The position numbers and the translations under genes were made by a program. The notes beneath the pieces were generated by a model. The model did no database searches. It had not been told where the DNA came from and saw only the letters and a program-made list of their open reading frames with translations. A stretch of 64,000 nt of DNA. Origin: Escherichia phage vB_EcoP_EP32B. Location: sequence record OR544955; one strand, 5' to 3'. This document shows, in pieces, positions 16,069 to 59,368 of the stretch (positions within the stretch are counted from its first letter, which is position 1; every line of letters begins with the position of its first letter).

Positions 16069-16590
16069 ATGAGAACATTTTTAACTGGACCTTATCTATC
16101 CCTGATGAATGCTTTTACACACCATTCTGATGCTAGAGTAGAAGAAATTTGTAAGAACGGTTATGTCCCACCATTTGAAGACGTACTCAAGCAGTACTGT
16201 ACACTTCGTTTAGACGGTGGCAGACAATCCGGTAAATCAATTGCTGTGACTAACTTTGCTGCTAATTGGCTGTATGATGGCGGAACAGTTATTGTTCTTT
16301 CTAATACTTCAGCTTATGCTAAAATTTCTGCTGGTAACATTGAAAAAGAATTTTCTCGATATTCTAGCGATGATATTCGATTCCGTTTATTTACTGATTC
16401 TGTTCGTAGTTTTATTGGCAATGAAGGTTCTAAATTCCGTGGATTAACGCTTTCTCGTATTCTGTATATAATTGACGAGCCTATTAAAGCTCCTGATATG
16501 GATAAGATTTACAATGTCCATATTAAAACAGTTACTGTTGCAAAAGCAAATATTGCATCGGCGGTAATGCTCGTCCTCAATTTTTTGTGA
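16069..16590 (+). CDS. small P-loop NTPase-like protein (173 aa)
   Basis: Walker A GGRQSGKS and Walker B-like LYIIDEP. Confidence 0.6.
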   Translation: MRTFLTGPYLSLMNAFTHHSDARVEEICKNGYVPPFEDVLKQYCTLRLDGGRQSGKSIAVTNFAANWLYDGGTVIVLSNTSAYAKISAGNIEKEFSRYSSDDIRFRLFTDSVRSFIGNEGSKFRGLTLSRILYIIDEPIKAPDMDKIYNVHIKTVTVAKANIASAVMLVLNFL

Positions 16591-16600
16591 TTGGAATGCA

Positions 16601-16909
16601 ATGATGACCACTATTGAAGTTTTTGAATATTGTTATAACAGTCCAGTATGCAATAAAAGGGCCCTTGTAGAAAATTACGAGATTTACCATTTTAAACCTA
16701 AACGATATCGTTTGACTAAAGGTCCGTTCGCAGGGCAGCAGGTTCTTTGTACTGCTCCTAATGCACGACTGATGACTAGTATTCCACATTTCAAAATGGA
16801 ATTTATTGATGGGCCATTTAAGGGATTAACCACTCAAAGTTTAATGGCGTTTAGTTCTGACCCATTTTTGATTAAAGAAAAAACTTGGATAAATTTATTT
16901 TCTAATTGA
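16601..16909 (+). CDS. hypothetical protein (102 aa)
   Basis: ORF following upstream gene. Confidence 0.5.
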   Translation: MMTTIEVFEYCYNSPVCNKRALVENYEIYHFKPKRYRLTKGPFAGQQVLCTAPNARLMTSIPHFKMEFIDGPFKGLTTQSLMAFSSDPFLIKEKTWINLFSN

Positions 16910-16915
16910 GGTTAT

Positions 16916-17278
16916 ATGAAAGCATATCAAATTCTTGAAGGTGCACATAAAGGCACTATTTATTTTGAAGACGGTACTCAAGCCCGGATTATTGTCTCTA
17001 AGACTTTTAAAGAAGACGCTATTGTAGACCCGGAAATTTTCTACGGTTTGAATGCCCGTGAAATTGAAATTGAACATCAACCTAAAGTTAAAATTGAAGG
17101 TGGTCAACACCTGAACGTTAACGTTCTGCGTCGCGAAACTCTGGAAGATGCAGTTAAGCATCCAGAAAAATATCCGCAGCTGACCATCCGTGTATCCGGT
17201 TATGCAGTTCGCTTTAACTCTCTAACTCCGGAACAGCAGCGCGACGTTATCGCTCGTACCTTTACTGAGAGTCTATAA
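16916..17278 (+). CDS. autonomous glycyl radical cofactor (GrcA/YfiD-like, T4 Y06I-like)
   Basis: C-terminal 60 residues [61 protein letters not shown] contain the RVSGY glycyl radical motif and match E. coli GrcA as recalled; local GC visibly higher. Confidence 0.85.
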
Positions 17279-17502
17279 TGGCTAAATTGATTATAGAAGG
17301 GTCTGAAGATGTTTTAAAATGTTTTGCCGCCTGGTTTAGTTGCTCAGGCGAGCAATCATTCATTGAAGCATTTAGAATGGGTGATATTACTGGAAACTAT
17401 CCGACAACTGATATCACTGTACGTGGATATGGTATTAATGAGCCTATCCAATTGGTCGAATATGACCTTGCCACCGATGAGGAAATTCCTTATGTCGATT
17501 GA
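17278..17502 (+). CDS. hypothetical protein (74 aa)
   Basis: ATAATG overlap with GrcA stop. Confidence 0.5.
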
Positions 17503-17890
17503 AGACATCAAAGGCTATAAGCCGCATACCGACGATAAAATCGGTAAAGTGAACGCTATTAAAGATGCAGAAGTTCGAGGAAAAATACTAATGGCTCAAA
17601 TCCTATCAGGCTTTGGAACTCATTATGAAGCATCTAGACGCATAACTGAAAGCAATCCTTTTGGCCTTGTTCCGAAGCACAAGAAAATTCAAAGCCTTGA
17701 TGACTTTGAGAACCGCCTATGGGCCCTCTTTAATGAGTACAAGGCATATCTGAAAGAAGACGCTGACGATTGTCTTGAAGAAGATGAGATTGCGTATTAC
17801 GAACAACGCCTTGAACAGCTCAAGAACTTCCATCAGGTTCGTGACGAAGTATCTAAAGCAGTTAAAAAGTTAATTCCTTTCAAAGAGTAG
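17492..17890 (+). CDS. hypothetical protein (132 aa)
   Basis: start at [12 protein letters not shown] overlapping upstream stop (ATGTCGATTGA); frame of track ORF 17324..17890. Confidence 0.5.
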
Positions 17891-17939
17891 TTTACTTCTC
17901 CTCTAGTTGTGTTACTATAGACATGTCAACTAGAGGAGA
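17890..17939 (+). promoter_or_regulatory. early promoter in inverted repeat (PeSL-like) upstream of regB
   Basis: GTTTAC, arms TCTCCTCTAGTTG / CAACTAGAGGAGA flanking GTTACTATAG. Confidence 0.5.
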
Positions 17940-17946
17940 AATCAAA

Positions 17947-18405
17947 ATGACTATCAATTCAGACGTTTTTATCCGCCGTAATAAACTCCGTCGAATCTTT
18001 GAAACGGAGTTCCGCAAAATAAATGCCGGTATAAAAGATGCTGCAAAGTCTCTTGGACTACCAGGCTTTCATATCAAGTATTCTCAACATCTCTTAGATC
18101 GTGCCATCCAGAGAGAAATAGATGAGAATTACGTTTTTGAATTATTTCATAAAGTAAAAAATCATGTTAAAGAAGTTGCAGAATTTTTATCAATGCCGGC
18201 ACGTCCAGATGTTGATGAAGATTTTGTCGAAGGTGTCGAGTATCGTCCAGGCCGTTTAGAAATAACTGATGGAAATCTTTGGTTAGGACTTACAGTCTGT
18301 CGCGAAAATCCAGCATTCAAAATGAAGACTCTTCAATGCAGAATGGCTATTATTAACAGTAAACGACTACCAGGAAAAGCTTCTAAAGCAGTGATTAAAA
18401 TCTAG
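17947..18405 (+). CDS. regB: endoribonuclease RegB
   Basis: MTINSDVFIRRNKLRRIFETEF...NSKRLPGKASKAVIKI, matches recalled T4 RegB. Confidence 0.9.
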   Translation: MTINSDVFIRRNKLRRIFETEFRKINAGIKDAAKSLGLPGFHIKYSQHLLDRAIQREIDENYVFELFHKVKNHVKEVAEFLSMPARPDVDEDFVEGVEYRPGRLEITDGNLWLGLTVCRENPAFKMKTLQCRMAIINSKRLPGKASKAVIKI

Positions 18406-18413
18406 AGGTAAAC

Positions 18414-18956
18414 ATGAGAAAAGCACTACTCGCTGGTCTATTTGCTCTTTCATTATCAGCACATAGCTCCGAGCATACTTTTAGTAATGTCCAACTCGAT
18501 AACTTGAATTATGCTTATCAGTTTGGGGAACAGTTTTCTAAGGACGGAAAATTTAAAACGCATGAAAATATGCATAAGAAAGGACTTGGATACATAATGG
18601 CCGCAATACTATGGCAGGAATCATCTGCCGGTATTAATCTTAAAGATAAGAAAGGTCACCATGCGTATGGAATGTTCCAAAATTATCTACCAACAATGAG
18701 GGTAAGAATTAACCAGCTTGGTTATAATATGACTGATGCCCAAATTAAGAAAATGCTATCTAAGCGGTCTAATTCAGCCAGATGGGCTTATATCGAATTT
18801 TCTTATTGGTTAAATATACATAACGGGGATATAAGAAAAGCTATATCCTCATATAATGCGGGATGGAAGACAAGTGCTGGAAGTAAATATGCTTCTGAAG
18901 TCCTAGAAAAGGCTAATTACCTTAAATCAAATAAACTACTGGAAATAAAAGAATGA
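18414..18956 (+). CDS. secreted lytic transglycosylase-like protein
   Basis: signal peptide MRKALLAGLFALSLSAHS; SLT-like motifs WQESSAG, GMFQ, SYNAGW. Confidence 0.6.
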   Translation: MRKALLAGLFALSLSAHSSEHTFSNVQLDNLNYAYQFGEQFSKDGKFKTHENMHKKGLGYIMAAILWQESSAGINLKDKKGHHAYGMFQNYLPTMRVRINQLGYNMTDAQIKKMLSKRSNSARWAYIEFSYWLNIHNGDIRKAISSYNAGWKTSAGSKYASEVLEKANYLKSNKLLEIKE

Positions 18957-19300
18957 CCAAAATGTTGGCTTTAATAGTTGGCTTGGTTTCATTTAGCGCT
19001 CTTGCTAATACTACATATACTGATGTAACGGAGTATACAAACAGAACGGCGTCTGATTATTGTGGTAAAAGTCAAGAGTGTAAAGTAGATTTTTCACAAA
19101 AATTGTTATATGCGTATAAAGACGGAGAAAAAGATGGGGCGTCTAGTAGGTTCAAGGCGTCTACCTTAATTAAAAGATACTATAAAAAATGGCAAATATT
19201 AGAATGCTCGGTGGCGGAACCTAAAGATAAGGCAGCATGCAATTCTATGGTGGACCGTCTAGTTGACTCTTATAATAGAGGACTTGCAGCAAGTGATTAA
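18953..19300 (+). CDS. secreted Cys-containing protein (115 aa)
   Basis: signal peptide MTKMLALIVGLVSFSALA. Confidence 0.55.
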   Translation: MTKMLALIVGLVSFSALANTTYTDVTEYTNRTASDYCGKSQECKVDFSQKLLYAYKDGEKDGASSRFKASTLIKRYYKKWQILECSVAEPKDKAACNSMVDRLVDSYNRGLAASD

Positions 19301-19760
19301 AAACTATATCAAGGGCGATATTGTCGCCCTGTTTTCTAAAGGTAATAATATTGCTCATGGGTGTAATTGTTTTCATACAATGGGCGCTGGTGTGGCAGGA
19401 CAATTAGCAAAGGCTTATCCAAAAATTTTAGAAGCCGATAAACTTCAAACCGAATTCGGAGACGAGTCTAAACTCGGGACTTATTCGGTTTATGAAAAAT
19501 ATTTTAAGACCCATAAAGCTTATTGCTTTAATCTTTATACACAGTTTGAGCCTGGACCTAATTTTGAGTACTATGCTTTAATGAATTGTATAATAGAATT
19601 AAATGAATTCGGAAAGAATAAGATAACAAAGCCTGTAATTTATATGCCAAGAATTGGTGCAGGTATCGGTGGCGGAAACTGGGATGTCATCGAAGAGATT
19701 TTAGACACATATTCCACTAAACTAGAAATTGTGATTGTTGATTGGGAACCATTATTATGA
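19293..19760 (+). CDS. macro domain protein (ADP-ribose binding/processing)
   Basis: NCFHTMGAGVAGQLAKAY and PRIGAGIGGGNWD resemble the two glycine-rich macro-domain motifs; start uncertain (GTG 19293 or TTG 19263). Confidence 0.6.
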   Translation: MIKNYIKGDIVALFSKGNNIAHGCNCFHTMGAGVAGQLAKAYPKILEADKLQTEFGDESKLGTYSVYEKYFKTHKAYCFNLYTQFEPGPNFEYYALMNCIIELNEFGKNKITKPVIYMPRIGAGIGGGNWDVIEEILDTYSTKLEIVIVDWEPLL

Positions 19761-19969
19761 ATATACATTATCCACATCCATATGACCCAAAGAATAAGGC
19801 AGTAATTATTCGTCAATGGGAACGCATTTGCCGTACTAAATGCCCAATTAATAGTCCACATGATGTAGATAAAGACTATATTGGAACATTCGTTGAATAT
19901 ACCTTTATTGATAAGAAAGGTCGTAAACAACATGTAGAAGAATATTGCTTAAAGGTTACATGGTTATGA
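19757..19969 (+). CDS. hypothetical protein (70 aa)
   Basis: ORF 19742..19969, start at MNIHYPHPYD. Confidence 0.45.
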   Translation: MNIHYPHPYDPKNKAVIIRQWERICRTKCPINSPHDVDKDYIGTFVEYTFIDKKGRKQHVEEYCLKVTWL

Positions 19970-20496
19970 GTCTTACTGCCGCCCATAACTATAAAGAACG
20001 TGGCATGGGTGTATTAGTTCTTAAACCGGCTATTGATACTCGCGATTCAAAAGGTGAAATAGTCTCTCGTATTGGTATTCGTCAGGACGCCAATATAATT
20101 ACAAAAGACATGGATATCTTTGAATTCTATAAATGGGCTGCAGCACAAAAGGATATTCATTGTGTATTTGTTGACGAAGCTCAGTTCTTAACTACTGAAA
20201 AGGTGTATCAACTTAGTCGTATTGTTGACGTATACAATGTGCCGGTAATGGCATATGGACTACGAACAGATTTTAAAGGTAATCTATTTGAAGGTTCTCA
20301 AGCATTAATGGCTATTGCCGATAAGCTTGTTGAACTTAAAGGTGTCTGTCATTGCGGTAAAAAGGCCACAATGGTAGCTAGAGTCACGGAAGACGGACTT
20401 CCAATTACAGATGGCAGTCAAATTGAAATTGGTGATACTGATAGATATGTGTCATTATGCCGGAAGCATTGGAATGATTTGACAGGGTTGTTATAA
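19960..20496 (+). CDS. tk: thymidine kinase homolog lacking the N-terminal P-loop (probable remnant)
   Basis: MVMSLTAAHNYKERGMGVLVLKPAIDTRD... aligns with TK1-family Tk from just after the GKS Walker A; in-frame stop 19924-19926 upstream. Confidence 0.7.
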   Translation: MVMSLTAAHNYKERGMGVLVLKPAIDTRDSKGEIVSRIGIRQDANIITKDMDIFEFYKWAAAQKDIHCVFVDEAQFLTTEKVYQLSRIVDVYNVPVMAYGLRTDFKGNLFEGSQALMAIADKLVELKGVCHCGKKATMVARVTEDGLPITDGSQIEIGDTDRYVSLCRKHWNDLTGLL

Positions 20497-20523
20497 ATAC
20501 TAATATCTAACCAAGAGGTATAT

Positions 20524-20736
20524 ATGCAGCAATTAAACGAAAGACAACTTCGTAATCTTACTGTAACCCAATTGGATGAAATCCGAAGAGAATTAGGACA
20601 TTCTATTTCTCATTTAAACGAGGATATCCGTCAAACTGGTTCTAAAGCTGATTATACACGCAAGCGCAAGCTGGAAAAATACCTCACAGATGTTAAGGCC
20701 GTCCAAAGGCGAAAAATAAATACTGGCCAAAATTAA
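20524..20736 (+). CDS. hypothetical basic protein (70 aa)
   Basis: ORF with Shine-Dalgarno GAGG. Confidence 0.5.
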
Positions 20737-20748
20737 CAGGAGGCCTAT

Positions 20749-21051
20749 ATGGCCTTAAGAGCGATAGCTGTCATGGCGATGCTGGGGTTTTTTGCAGCAA
20801 CAACTCCTATCGTTGGTACTGCATATACCGACCCATATTTTGACAACTTTATGGAATCAGGGATTAAAAACGTATATACTTTGTTTGAAATTCAAAATGT
20901 CGAGAATTCTGAAAAATTCTATAAGTATATGGCAAAGCATTACAAAAATAGCCCCTGTGATGATGCATTTGAATGTCATGAACAAGGCATAAAAACTGCC
21001 AGACAATTTGCCGAGTTCATGAAAATAAAATTAGAGCCTACATCTATCTAA
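20749..21051 (+). CDS. rI: lysis inhibition regulator rI
   Basis: MALRAIAVMAMLGFFAATTPIVGTAYTDPYFDNFMESGI...KIKLE matches recalled T4 RI; N-terminal signal-anchor. Confidence 0.85.
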   Translation: MALRAIAVMAMLGFFAATTPIVGTAYTDPYFDNFMESGIKNVYTLFEIQNVENSEKFYKYMAKHYKNSPCDDAFECHEQGIKTARQFAEFMKIKLEPTSI

Positions 21052-21058
21052 TTTACTA

Positions 21059-21085
21059 GCCCCTTCCTTACGGTTGGGGCTTTTT
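21059..21085 (+). terminator. rho-independent terminator after rI
   Basis: GCCCC-TTCCTTACGGTT-GGGGC stem-loop followed by TTTTT. Confidence 0.6.
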
Positions 21086-21096
21086 GGCATCTATCA

Positions 21097-21146
21097 GTTT
21101 ACTTCTCCTCAGGTTGTGTTATAGTAGACCTTACTTACTAGAGGAG
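21097..21146 (+). promoter_or_regulatory. early promoter in inverted repeat (PeSL-like)
   Basis: GTTTAC, arms CTCCTC / GAGGAG around GTTATAGTAG. Confidence 0.45.
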
Positions 21147-21152
21147 AACGTT

Positions 21153-21332
21153 ATGTCACGTAAAGAAAAAATTTCTAAGTTGATGTTTTTGATTGAAGAG
21201 TATGCTAATGCGGTGTCTGATTGGGAAAATGCTCATGGGTGCGAAGATGGAGACATCGACATTAACAGAGCTATGAAAAAGATGGCTGATACTCACACCG
21301 AATTGCAAATGTATGTTAACGAGATTATGTGA
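21153..21332 (+). CDS. hypothetical protein (59 aa)
   Basis: ORF 21084..21332, start MSRKEKISKL after the promoter hairpin. Confidence 0.5.
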   Translation: MSRKEKISKLMFLIEEYANAVSDWENAHGCEDGDIDINRAMKKMADTHTELQMYVNEIM

Positions 21333-21339
21333 GGACATT

Positions 21340-21546
21340 ATGCTTTACGATTATACTGGAAAATCTGAAGACGGTGTACTTGAACTTTTACCTGAAAGCG
21401 CTGAAGACGATGATATGGTGGTGATGTTTTGTAAAAATGGCCCTGGGGATAAGGGATGGATTTATCTTCGCCAAGAAAATGACTTAATTGTTTTGGACCC
21501 TAAACAAGTTGAAGAACTTTATCAACATTTAAAACACAATCGGTAG
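21340..21546 (+). CDS. hypothetical acidic protein (68 aa)
   Basis: ATG preceded by GAGGAC. Confidence 0.5.
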   Translation: MLYDYTGKSEDGVLELLPESAEDDDMVVMFCKNGPGDKGWIYLRQENDLIVLDPKQVEELYQHLKHNR

Positions 21547-23922: not shown

Positions 23923-24204
23923 ATGAAAAAATTAGTAATTGGTTTATTCGCAGTAATGATGGCATTCTCTGTTGGTGCTACCACGGGTGCTGCTGGCGGT
24001 AGTGCAGGAGCTGGTGGTAACCAGTCTTCTGGGCCTTCTAATGGTTCGGTAAATGCATCACATTCTCAGGGTATTGAGAACATTAGATCAAGCTATATTA
24101 ATAGCACGGCCGGACAAGCAACTGAAGCATGGTCAAAGGGCCGAGTAGTTACTCGCTCCGTATTCTGTGATATGCCTAATTATGTTGCTAAGTGCGATAA
24201 GTAA
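23923..24204 (+). CDS. secreted Gly/Ser-rich protein (93 aa)
   Basis: signal peptide MKKLVIGLFAVMMAFSVGA, low-complexity Gly-rich region, two Cys near C-terminus. Confidence 0.6.
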   Translation: MKKLVIGLFAVMMAFSVGATTGAAGGSAGAGGNQSSGPSNGSVNASHSQGIENIRSSYINSTAGQATEAWSKGRVVTRSVFCDMPNYVAKCDK

Positions 24205-58332: not shown

Positions 58333-58701
58333 ATGAAAAAATTAATCGCTTTAGCAATGGTATTTGGATTAACCGGATGTGGTGCCCATGGCTTTATCCC
58401 TAATAACGTTGGCCAATTGATTTACAATCCGAATGTTAAACAGTATGACCAACCTAAAGTTGAAGTGGAAGACCCGGTTACTGTAGGTAATCGAATGATT
58501 CAAGCTGATGCCCATGCTCAACGTTATCGTGACTCTGATACTGTAGCATTGTCAAAAGAACAACGCGTTAAAGAACATTGTCTACAGGCTACTGAAATCG
58601 CATTCATTCGCTATGTTGAAACAACTGGTAAAGAGCCTACCCAGAAACAAATAGCGAATAACTACGTCCAGTGTATTGAACGTTTAAACAAATTTAATTA
58701 A
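58333..58701 (+). CDS. lipoprotein (122 aa)
   Basis: signal peptide with lipobox LTGC. Confidence 0.6.
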   Translation: MKKLIALAMVFGLTGCGAHGFIPNNVGQLIYNPNVKQYDQPKVEVEDPVTVGNRMIQADAHAQRYRDSDTVALSKEQRVKEHCLQATEIAFIRYVETTGKEPTQKQIANNYVQCIERLNKFN

Positions 58702-59074: not shown

Positions 59075-59368
59075 ATGAAAAAGTTATCATTGGCAGCAAT
59101 CTTACTTGCAGTATCATGTGCACCGGCTCCAGTTACGGCAGGTTATGATAAAGACCTCTGTGAGTGGTCAATGACTGCAAATCAAGAAGATGTTGAACAA
59201 CAAATCTTCTCTGATATCATGAACATCACTAAACGAGACCGTCCTAATATGGTTAATAAAGTTGTTGAACAACTTAAGTCTGGCGGTATCATGCAGTACA
59301 ACTATGTTTTGTATTGTGACCCTAATTTCGATAACAAAGATATCGTAACCGAAATCACAGGTGAATAA
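59075..59368 (+). CDS. sp: Spackle (sp) periplasmic protein
   Basis: signal peptide then AGYDKDLCEWSMTANQ...LKSGGIMQYNYVLYCDPNF, matches recalled T4 Sp. Confidence 0.8.
   Translation: MKKLSLAAILLAVSCAPAPVTAGYDKDLCEWSMTANQEDVEQQIFSDIMNITKRDRPNMVNKVVEQLKSGGIMQYNYVLYCDPNFDNKDIVTEITGE

Follow-up and report, generated by a model that had tools for sequence, protein, structure and literature searches.

Two conserved genes between regB and tk.4

The window analysed here, i.e. the whole stretch of 64,000 nucleotides from Escherichia phage vB_EcoP_EP32B (sequence record OR544955; EP32B hereafter), belongs to a Mosigvirus, an RB69/JS09/APCEc01-like T-even phage, and its positions 17900–20500 are 98.5–98.8% identical at the DNA level to many Mosigvirus genomes. 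Two plus-strand ORFs occupy positions 18414–19300, and the boundaries given for them in a preliminary description of this DNA hold, at 18414..18956 (180 aa) and 18953..19300 (115 aa). Both are retrieved by tblastn as conserved genes. The minus-strand ORFs found across the same interval encode 31–52 aa, and none of them is supported.

The product of the first gene matches phrog_600 (E 1.2e-66, residues 1–178) and is 82.6% identical to T4 Vs.1 across 178 aa. The product of the second one matches phrog_1256 (E 1.1e-35) and shares 68% identity with T4 Vs, and P0121, a protein 97% identical to it, is annotated with PF26829 ('ValRS_modifier'). With high confidence, the two ORFs are orthologues of the already named T4 genes vs.1 and vs. 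The second protein, which had been described as unknown, thus bears a name, that of the modifier of valyl-tRNA synthetase (ValRS). Both are routine, conserved and previously annotated accessory genes of T-even phages, and the novelty of the locus does not lie in the identity of its genes. NCBIfam gave no match for either protein.

The gene order regB – vs.1 – vs – tk.4 – small ORFs – tk – rI.1 – rI is common to SA79RD and T4. The endoribonuclease gene regB lies directly upstream of vs.1 (17947..18405, plus strand; Pfam REGB_T4, E 7.2e-69), with a start placed by homology with SA79RD; the longest ORF begins at 17923. The vs start codon and the vs.1 stop codon overlap within an ATGA read directly from the sequence (18953..18956, plus strand), an arrangement that predicts translational coupling. 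At its other end, vs shares 8 nt with the start of the macro-domain gene tk.4 (19293..19760, plus strand; Pfam Macro, E 3.4e-6), which was positioned by homology with SA79RD and T4; the T4 tk.4 product is AdfM, an anti-DarTG2 protein (HIDEN-SEQ preprint, 10.1101/2025.11.20.689424). The T4 vs gene overlaps vs.1 and tk.4 in the same way as its EP32B counterpart. As in T4, the pair lies between regB and tk, a location that suggests early expression. An Rfam search of positions 16500–21500 gave no match, and a promoter scan was uninformative, with a promoter-like count under the shuffle expectation. The repeats around the locus look chance-like, except for a hairpin ahead of regB.

The transglycosylase-like domain of Vs.1

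The ES, GMFQ and YNAG motifs of SLT-type enzymes, to which the preliminary description had drawn attention in the first protein, are real and nearly invariant in 40 homologues. Little or no variation is seen across these 40 sequences in the segments WQE69SS, YG86MFQ89N and SY147N148AG150, and E69, S71, G86, Q89, N90, Y147, N148 and G150 are retained down to 39% identity. E-S, G-L-M-Q-like and A-Y-N-A-G-like motifs define the family 1 lytic transglycosylases, and Vs.1 shares with them the catalytic Glu followed by Ser, the G-(L/M)-(M/F)-Q and the (A/S)-Y-N-A-G elements. The Glu69 codon (18618..18620, plus strand) would encode the catalytic acid of the WQES motif, a putative role drawn from what is known of the SLT family, and this residue falls within the part of Vs.1 (residues 61–154) that aligns with positions 16–101 of the Pfam SLT profile. 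This profile (PF01464) scores the EP32B copy at 17.8 bits, below its 21.3 cut-off. It matches 38 of the 40 family members at E<0.01, with a best E of 1.3e-7, and several homologues carry a precomputed PF01464 assignment.

An SLT fold, on which the earlier proposal hinged, is also predicted for Vs.1. The AF2 model has a pLDDT of 89.9 and a pTM of 0.83, and its top PDB matches in Foldseek are lysozyme-superfamily structures only, such as the GH23 chitinase 3w6e, MltD 8rhi, Slt 6fcq/5ohu, Slt70 1sly and the phi6 lysin 4dq5 (probability 0.7–1.0, E 0.013–0.5, TM about 0.5). The probability is about 1 for 3w6e, 8rhi, 6fcq and the phi6 lysin. Sequence searches of the PDB and family-profile searches gave no meaningful match with Vs.1, so that its relation to known structures is remote. 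Metacaspase and antibody light-chain structures, which came up among the PDB matches of the Vs.1 and Vs searches, were dismissed as noise. The SLT similarity itself is not new. It has been in print since 2006, when Nolan et al. (PMC1524935) described it for vs.1 in six of six genomes and cited earlier PSI-BLAST matches. No experimental characterisation of Vs.1, either from T4 or from EP32B, was found in the literature.

T4 Vs.1 (NP_049725; phrog_600) has the same length, the same position between regB and vs and the same SLT motifs as the EP32B protein. The two also share the signal peptide (MRKALLAGL...AHS↓SEHTFSN, where the arrow marks the predicted cleavage site, as it does below) and differ by ordinary sequence divergence only. 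The lysozyme-like alpha fold predicted for Vs.1 is that of Slt70, MltD and MltE from E. coli and of Slt and MltD from P. aeruginosa, and the family 1 enzymes are periplasmic, as Vs.1 is predicted to be. Its sequence similarity to them is marginal and, unlike the cellular enzymes, it consists of a minimal single domain of about 160 residues, devoid of superhelical, LysM and lipid-anchor modules. Vs.1 is phage-encoded and apparently not associated with the virion, in contrast to the phi6 P5, T7 gp16 and PRD1 P7 transglycosylases, which are virion-associated.

We hold with high confidence that Vs.1 is an exported enzyme of the GH23/SLT type with an intact catalytic motif. The family 1 enzymes of this group cleave the MurNAc-GlcNAc bond non-hydrolytically, which yields 1,6-anhydroMurNAc. 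Vs.1 would be released into the periplasm through its Sec signal peptide as a protein of about 18.7–19 kDa and fold there as a GH23/SLT lysozyme-like domain, in which the catalytic Glu E69, GMFQ and SYNAG are retained. It would then most likely cut the MurNAc-GlcNAc bonds of the host peptidoglycan as a lytic transglycosylase.

Predicted export signals and the four-cysteine domain of Vs

Cleavable-looking signal peptides had been reported at both N-termini, and comparison between homologues bears this out. The calls were made with a crude heuristic of our own (basic n-region, hydrophobic core, small residues at −3/−1), which passes 9 of the 110 greedy ORFs of the window, the positive controls Spackle and rI being among these. 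The predicted Sec signal peptide of Vs.1 covers residues 1–18 (18414..18467, plus strand; MRKALLAGLFALSLSAHS↓SEH), with an alternative cut after residue 16, and that of Vs also covers residues 1–18 (18953..19006, plus strand; MTKMLALIVGLVSFSALA↓NTT). The N-termini can be divided into MRK-ALLAGLFALSLSAHS↓SEH for Vs.1 and MTK-MLALIVGLVSFSALA↓NTT for Vs, the mean Kyte-Doolittle values of the cores over 9 residues being 2.6 and 3.1, respectively. Small −3/−1 residues are provided by AHS↓SEH or LSA↓HSS in Vs.1 and by ALA↓NTT in Vs. The layout is that of SPase I signal peptides, with a hydrophobic stretch of 10–15 residues and an N-terminal segment lying outside the fold.

The same heuristic passes 156 of the 166 distinct Vs.1-like sequences and all 81 distinct Vs-like ones, and the ten Vs.1-like sequences that fail seem to be truncated or to have a miscalled start codon. 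Comparison between homologues carries more weight here than the heuristic by itself. In both alignments, conservation is lowest in the signal regions, the only invariant columns of Vs before residue 28 being M1 and L7, and the AF2 confidence is low there (pLDDT 64–68 over the first 20 residues of Vs.1, below 50 over residues 1–15 of Vs). The predicted cleavage site of the Vs.1 homologues is always found directly ahead of a conserved FSxxQ motif. In Vs, indel polymorphism keeps the A-x-A site (FSALA↓N, FSVLA↓D, FSASASA↓D), and the signal ends with ALA↓NTT in EP32B and SASASA↓DTS in T4, both of which look functional. The export signals appear therefore to be conserved in function and not in sequence. 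Of the 81 Vs-like signals, 77 are of the SPase I type and four, from CC31/PG7-type Karamvirus, carry the lipobox LSGC; the Karamvirus Vs proteins (CC31, PG7 and 31 further records) have the lipoprotein signal MKKLFVLLVVFALSGC↓K.

The second protein had been noted to contain cysteines, and there are indeed four of them, all invariant in the Vs-family alignments (C37, C43, C85 and C96, with codons spanning 19061..19240 on the plus strand). Exactly four Cys are present in the mature part of 79 of the 81 distinct family members. The AF2 model of Vs (pLDDT 84.9) contains four helices, at residues 16–37, 41–64, 69–85 and 90–114, and its Cys would pair so as to close two loops, at the turns between helices 1 and 2 and between helices 3 and 4. 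Their spacing is not constant between subfamilies (CX5-12C and CX8-10C). Such variation is more compatible with disulfides than with metal bound at a fixed site and, together with the export signal, makes Zn(Cys)4 coordination the less likely option. Vs would accordingly consist of a cleavable Sec signal, replaced by a lipoprotein signal in Karamvirus, and of a domain of 11 kDa made of four helices, the loops of which are probably stapled by two disulfides. That Vs is exported and disulfide-bonded is held with fairly high confidence.

T4 Vs (NP_049724; PF26829; phrog_1256) is likewise 115 residues long, and the four Cys of EP32B Vs and, at the C-terminus, its SMVDRLVDSYNRGL motif are both invariant. 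Many of the proteins encoded next to vs.1 in other phages seem at first to have little in common with T4 Vs, yet they are its homologues. The mature domains of T4-type and Acinetobacter/Krischvirus/Jiaodavirus-type Vs could be matched by hhalign with a probability of 98.4% (E 9.5e-15), their four Cys being aligned, and the T4-type and Acinetobacter/Krischvirus-type proteins are already united within Pfam PF26829. An exhaustive HMMER search with Vs against 1.84 billion representatives returned only 7 clusters, all of them from phages or fragments, with no bacterial relatives, and the profile search gave PF26829 members only. PDB sequence and profile searches gave no meaningful match, and no sequence or fold similarity was found with Spackle, Ivy, MliC/PliC, PliG or LprI/DUF1311.

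The mismatch between the name of Vs and its architecture is the main remaining point of the vs.1–vs locus. The classical genetic vs locus of T4 presumably corresponds to the orthologue of the ORF at 18953..19300. Binding of the vs product to cytoplasmic ValRS was described by Müller and Marchin (1975, 1977), as cited in PMC8076793, and it has been reported for the T4 protein only. Together with the annotation and with the Pfam name, this biochemistry speaks for Vs being a cytoplasmic ValRS-binding factor, as textbooks have it. Its N-terminus would then be unused for export, or would export part of the pool only, its synteny with vs.1 would be functionally meaningless, and Vs.1 would be an independent periplasmic transglycosylase. 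We consider this reading less likely than not, but a competitor to be taken seriously. The predicted export signal would argue against access of Vs to ValRS, and its retention in every family member, despite free divergence of the sequence, is not what is expected of a cytoplasmic protein. The lipobox of the four Karamvirus sequences makes sense only outside the cytoplasm and is, for a cytoplasmic protein, hard to explain. The four invariant Cys with their variable spacing point in the same direction, as does the lack of an internal Met able to yield a signal-less isoform. The mature domain has a mass of about 11.0 kDa and the precursor of 12.9–13.1 kDa, the former being closer to the size of about 10 kDa that the purified ValRS-modifying tau factor presumably had. 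Moreover, T4 Vs produced in the cytoplasm at full length and with a His tag did not stay soluble and ended up in inclusion bodies (PMC8076793).

The vs.1–vs pair and its possible function

The profile scan of IMG/VR with Vs.1 returned 70 loci. In 56 of them, from Escherichia to Acinetobacter phages, a vs-like gene starts at −8 to +7 nt from vs.1. The adjacent products are 99–122 aa long, and each has a signal peptide, a set of four Cys and, at the C-terminus, a motif of the form (Y/F)xxG(L/I); two of these 56 copies are damaged, L025 by an internal deletion (85 aa) and L041 by a frameshift. In the RB43/RB16-type loci (n=3), the vs-like gene lies one gene beyond vs.1, and none was found within the examined flank of vs.1 in the Aeromonas, Slopekvirus and jumbo-phage loci. 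The pair is conserved across much of the Straboviridae; in phages that keep their gene order, adjacency is only a weak argument for an interaction. Among phage records, tblastn detects Vs.1 in 2052, spanning Straboviridae, Ackermannviridae and Felixounavirus, and Vs in 795. In Aeromonas phages, as in Slopekvirus, Felixounavirus and Ackermannviridae, Vs.1 is found with no Vs. It follows from this wide occurrence that Vs.1 does not need Vs, which is also what the cytoplasmic reading of Vs would lead one to expect.

Recent T4 transposon data bear on both genes. In the HIDEN-SEQ study (10.1101/2025.11.20.689424), vs and vs.1 are both non-essential. Their mean insertion counts in the LB competition control are 26.6 and 22.6, respectively, to be compared with 128–767 for ten non-essential neighbours (regB, vs.3, vs.4, tk.4, tk.3, tk.2, tk.1, tk, rI.1 and rI), i.e. 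an about 5–30-fold under-representation. This like depletion of vs and vs.1 fits a shared function, and the phenotype of the vs.1 insertions may be due to polarity on vs. In M9Glc, the same preprint gives a log2FC of −2.19 for vs (adjusted p 0) and of −0.87 for vs.1 (p 0.0055, adjusted p 0.155), the flanking genes being not significant (−0.21 to +0.28; regB +1.17, adjusted p 0.80). It also reports a plaque defect of the vs deletion in M9Glc, places vs first among the T4 genes that become important in minimal medium, and calls the biological role of ValRS modification unknown (10.1101/2025.11.20.689424). The stronger M9Glc defect of vs suggests a role of Vs that is independent of Vs.1 and plausibly linked to amino-acid supply. 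This difference between vs, the most depleted T4 gene in this medium, and the far less affected vs.1 also fits a factor acting on translation or amino-acid supply, as the ValRS-binding reading has it.

Taken with the signals, the Cys, the adjacency and the further secreted proteins and rI encoded directly after the pair in Acinetobacter and Klebsiella phages, these data make us lean towards a periplasmic two-gene module, in which Vs.1 is the lytic transglycosylase and Vs its partner. Vs would most likely be needed in the periplasm for the same envelope-directed function as Vs.1. A further step, about which we are clearly more hesitant, is that Vs is physiologically periplasmic (and lipid-anchored in Karamvirus), disulfide-bonded and works with Vs.1 on the envelope, its association with ValRS being secondary. 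Such a secondary association might arise once cells are broken, might involve precursor that was not exported, or might reflect a historical mis-assignment of the vs locus to this ORF. The in vivo behaviour of vs mutants on valS(ts) hosts is reportedly altered, an effect that a purely periplasmic protein could not produce; a dual localisation, with an unexported pool of precursor, is a possible reconciliation with ValRS binding. If Vs is truly exported and a partner of Vs.1, the minimal-medium (M9Glc) phenotype needs a different explanation, and hundreds of annotations as "valyl-tRNA synthetase modifier" are misleading. T4-like phages would then own a conserved early module for envelope remodelling that is unstudied.

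Vs might also act as a periplasmic inhibitor or immunity protein directed against Vs.1, gp5 or the host lytic transglycosylases, in the manner of Spackle on gp5 or of Ivy/MliC, the enzyme being held until needed. Its predicted features are suitable, as it is small, helical and disulfide-bonded, and its gene comes right after, and is coupled to, that of a muralytic enzyme. T4 Spackle (sp), the inhibitor of the gp5 lysozyme, is similarly small, early, Sec-exported, helical and Cys-containing, and provides a precedent (PMC7677548). The corresponding gene is present in the EP32B genome, where the preliminary description had correctly recognised Spackle at 59075..59368 (phrog_1586, E 2.9e-42). Unlike vs, which lies beside vs.1, it is encoded away from the gene of its target enzyme, and Spackle is used here as an analogy only for a possible mode of action of Vs. 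The greater harm caused by the loss of vs than by that of vs.1 in M9Glc would also be in keeping with an inhibitor. Insertions in vs.1 should however be neutral or relieving in that case, yet they are as under-represented as those in vs in LB. A partner is for this reason preferred, and an inhibitory role seems improbable to us.

The pair had initially been proposed to contribute, with Spackle, to superinfection exclusion, by protecting or remodelling the peptidoglycan against a superinfecting phage. We give little credence to this proposal, T4 superinfection exclusion being classically credited to Imm and Sp. Moreover, the fitness cost is seen in single-phage competition assays and is not obviously predicted by a pure exclusion function. 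The predicted periplasmic location of Vs.1 and Vs is in its favour, as is a neighbourhood rich in genes related to the envelope or to lysis timing, such as rI.1 and rI. A third secreted protein is encoded after vs in Klebsiella phage PKO111, Acinetobacter phage DLP2 and Proteus-type contigs, and the run from vs.1 to rI is contiguous in DLP2, in the order vs.1 – vs – secreted protein – membrane protein – rI. In EP32B, rI.1 and rI are also found within the window.

Variation and tolerance of vs

Vs does not keep the same export signal in all phages. The homologues from Karamvirus (L036:3049-3375, the locus of Enterobacter phage CC31, and likewise those of L037, L039 and L061) have a predicted lipoprotein signal, …FALSGC|K, in place of an SPase I site. 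This Karamvirus vs gene is common to 33 phage records at ≥90% DNA identity. Damaged copies are also found. In a locus resembling Escherichia phage vB_EcoM_005 (L025:3041-3298), an internal deletion removes the first Cys pair and leaves 85 aa, and in a PG7-like locus (L041:3049-3376) the gene is split by a frameshift. Some lineages can therefore do without vs. In T4, mean transposon counts are 26.6 for vs and 22.6 for vs.1 in the LB control (HIDEN-SEQ supplement 7, sheet K-12 LB vs M9Glc; 10.1101/2025.11.20.689424), and the counts of both genes lie 5-30-fold below those of all ten flanking non-essential genes, LB control included.

Further proteins with export signals

Many phages that are not of the T4 type have, after vs, a gene for a third secreted protein, which is conserved and about 130-146 aa long, as in PKO111 (gp051, L006:2309-2701), DLP2 (DLP2_135, L004:2285-2710) and two further phage loci (L056:3376-3816 and L077:2312-2752). 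The mature N-terminus reads W-E/Y-x-x-P-G-Y in three of these four proteins, DLP2_135 being the exception, and the number of Cys residues ranges from 2 to 4. In Acinetobacter phage DLP2, vs.1, vs, the third secreted protein, a membrane protein and rI are contiguous. No such third protein is found in the window or in T4. Elsewhere in the window, two small plus-strand ORFs also have predicted export signals: they encode a Gly/Ser-rich protein of 93 aa (23923-24204; phrog_2243, unknown function) and, just upstream of Spackle, a lipoprotein-like protein of 122 aa with an LTGC lipobox (58333-58701; phrog_1754, unknown function).

Sequences flanking the vs.1-vs pair

The region immediately 5' of the regB start is spanned by an inverted repeat (17891-17945, plus strand; 19 nt, 89% complementary, 17-nt loop), whose 3' arm includes a Shine-Dalgarno-like sequence with GGAG. 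In the relative SA79RD, the annotation places a terminator at the corresponding site. Directly 3' of vs lies the macro-domain gene tk.4 (19293-19760, plus strand; Pfam Macro, E 3.4e-6), the T4 orthologue of which has recently been named AdfM, an anti-DarTG2 factor (HIDEN-SEQ preprint, 10.1101/2025.11.20.689424).

Downstream of tk.4 (region 19966-20496, junction at about 19971/19972), comparison with the closest relatives, such as SA79RD (L001:3574-4018), reveals a clean deletion of 445 bp in the window, which takes out a Cys-rich ORF of 68 aa, tk.2 and the start of the thymidine kinase gene (its first ~19 codons). The deleted codons include the P-loop (AMNAGKS), and the leftover tk frame, which begins M-S-L-T-A-A-H-N-Y, probably encodes an inactive product. 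All of the 25 top database matches align in two pieces across this site, and the deletion is therefore absent from every one of them.
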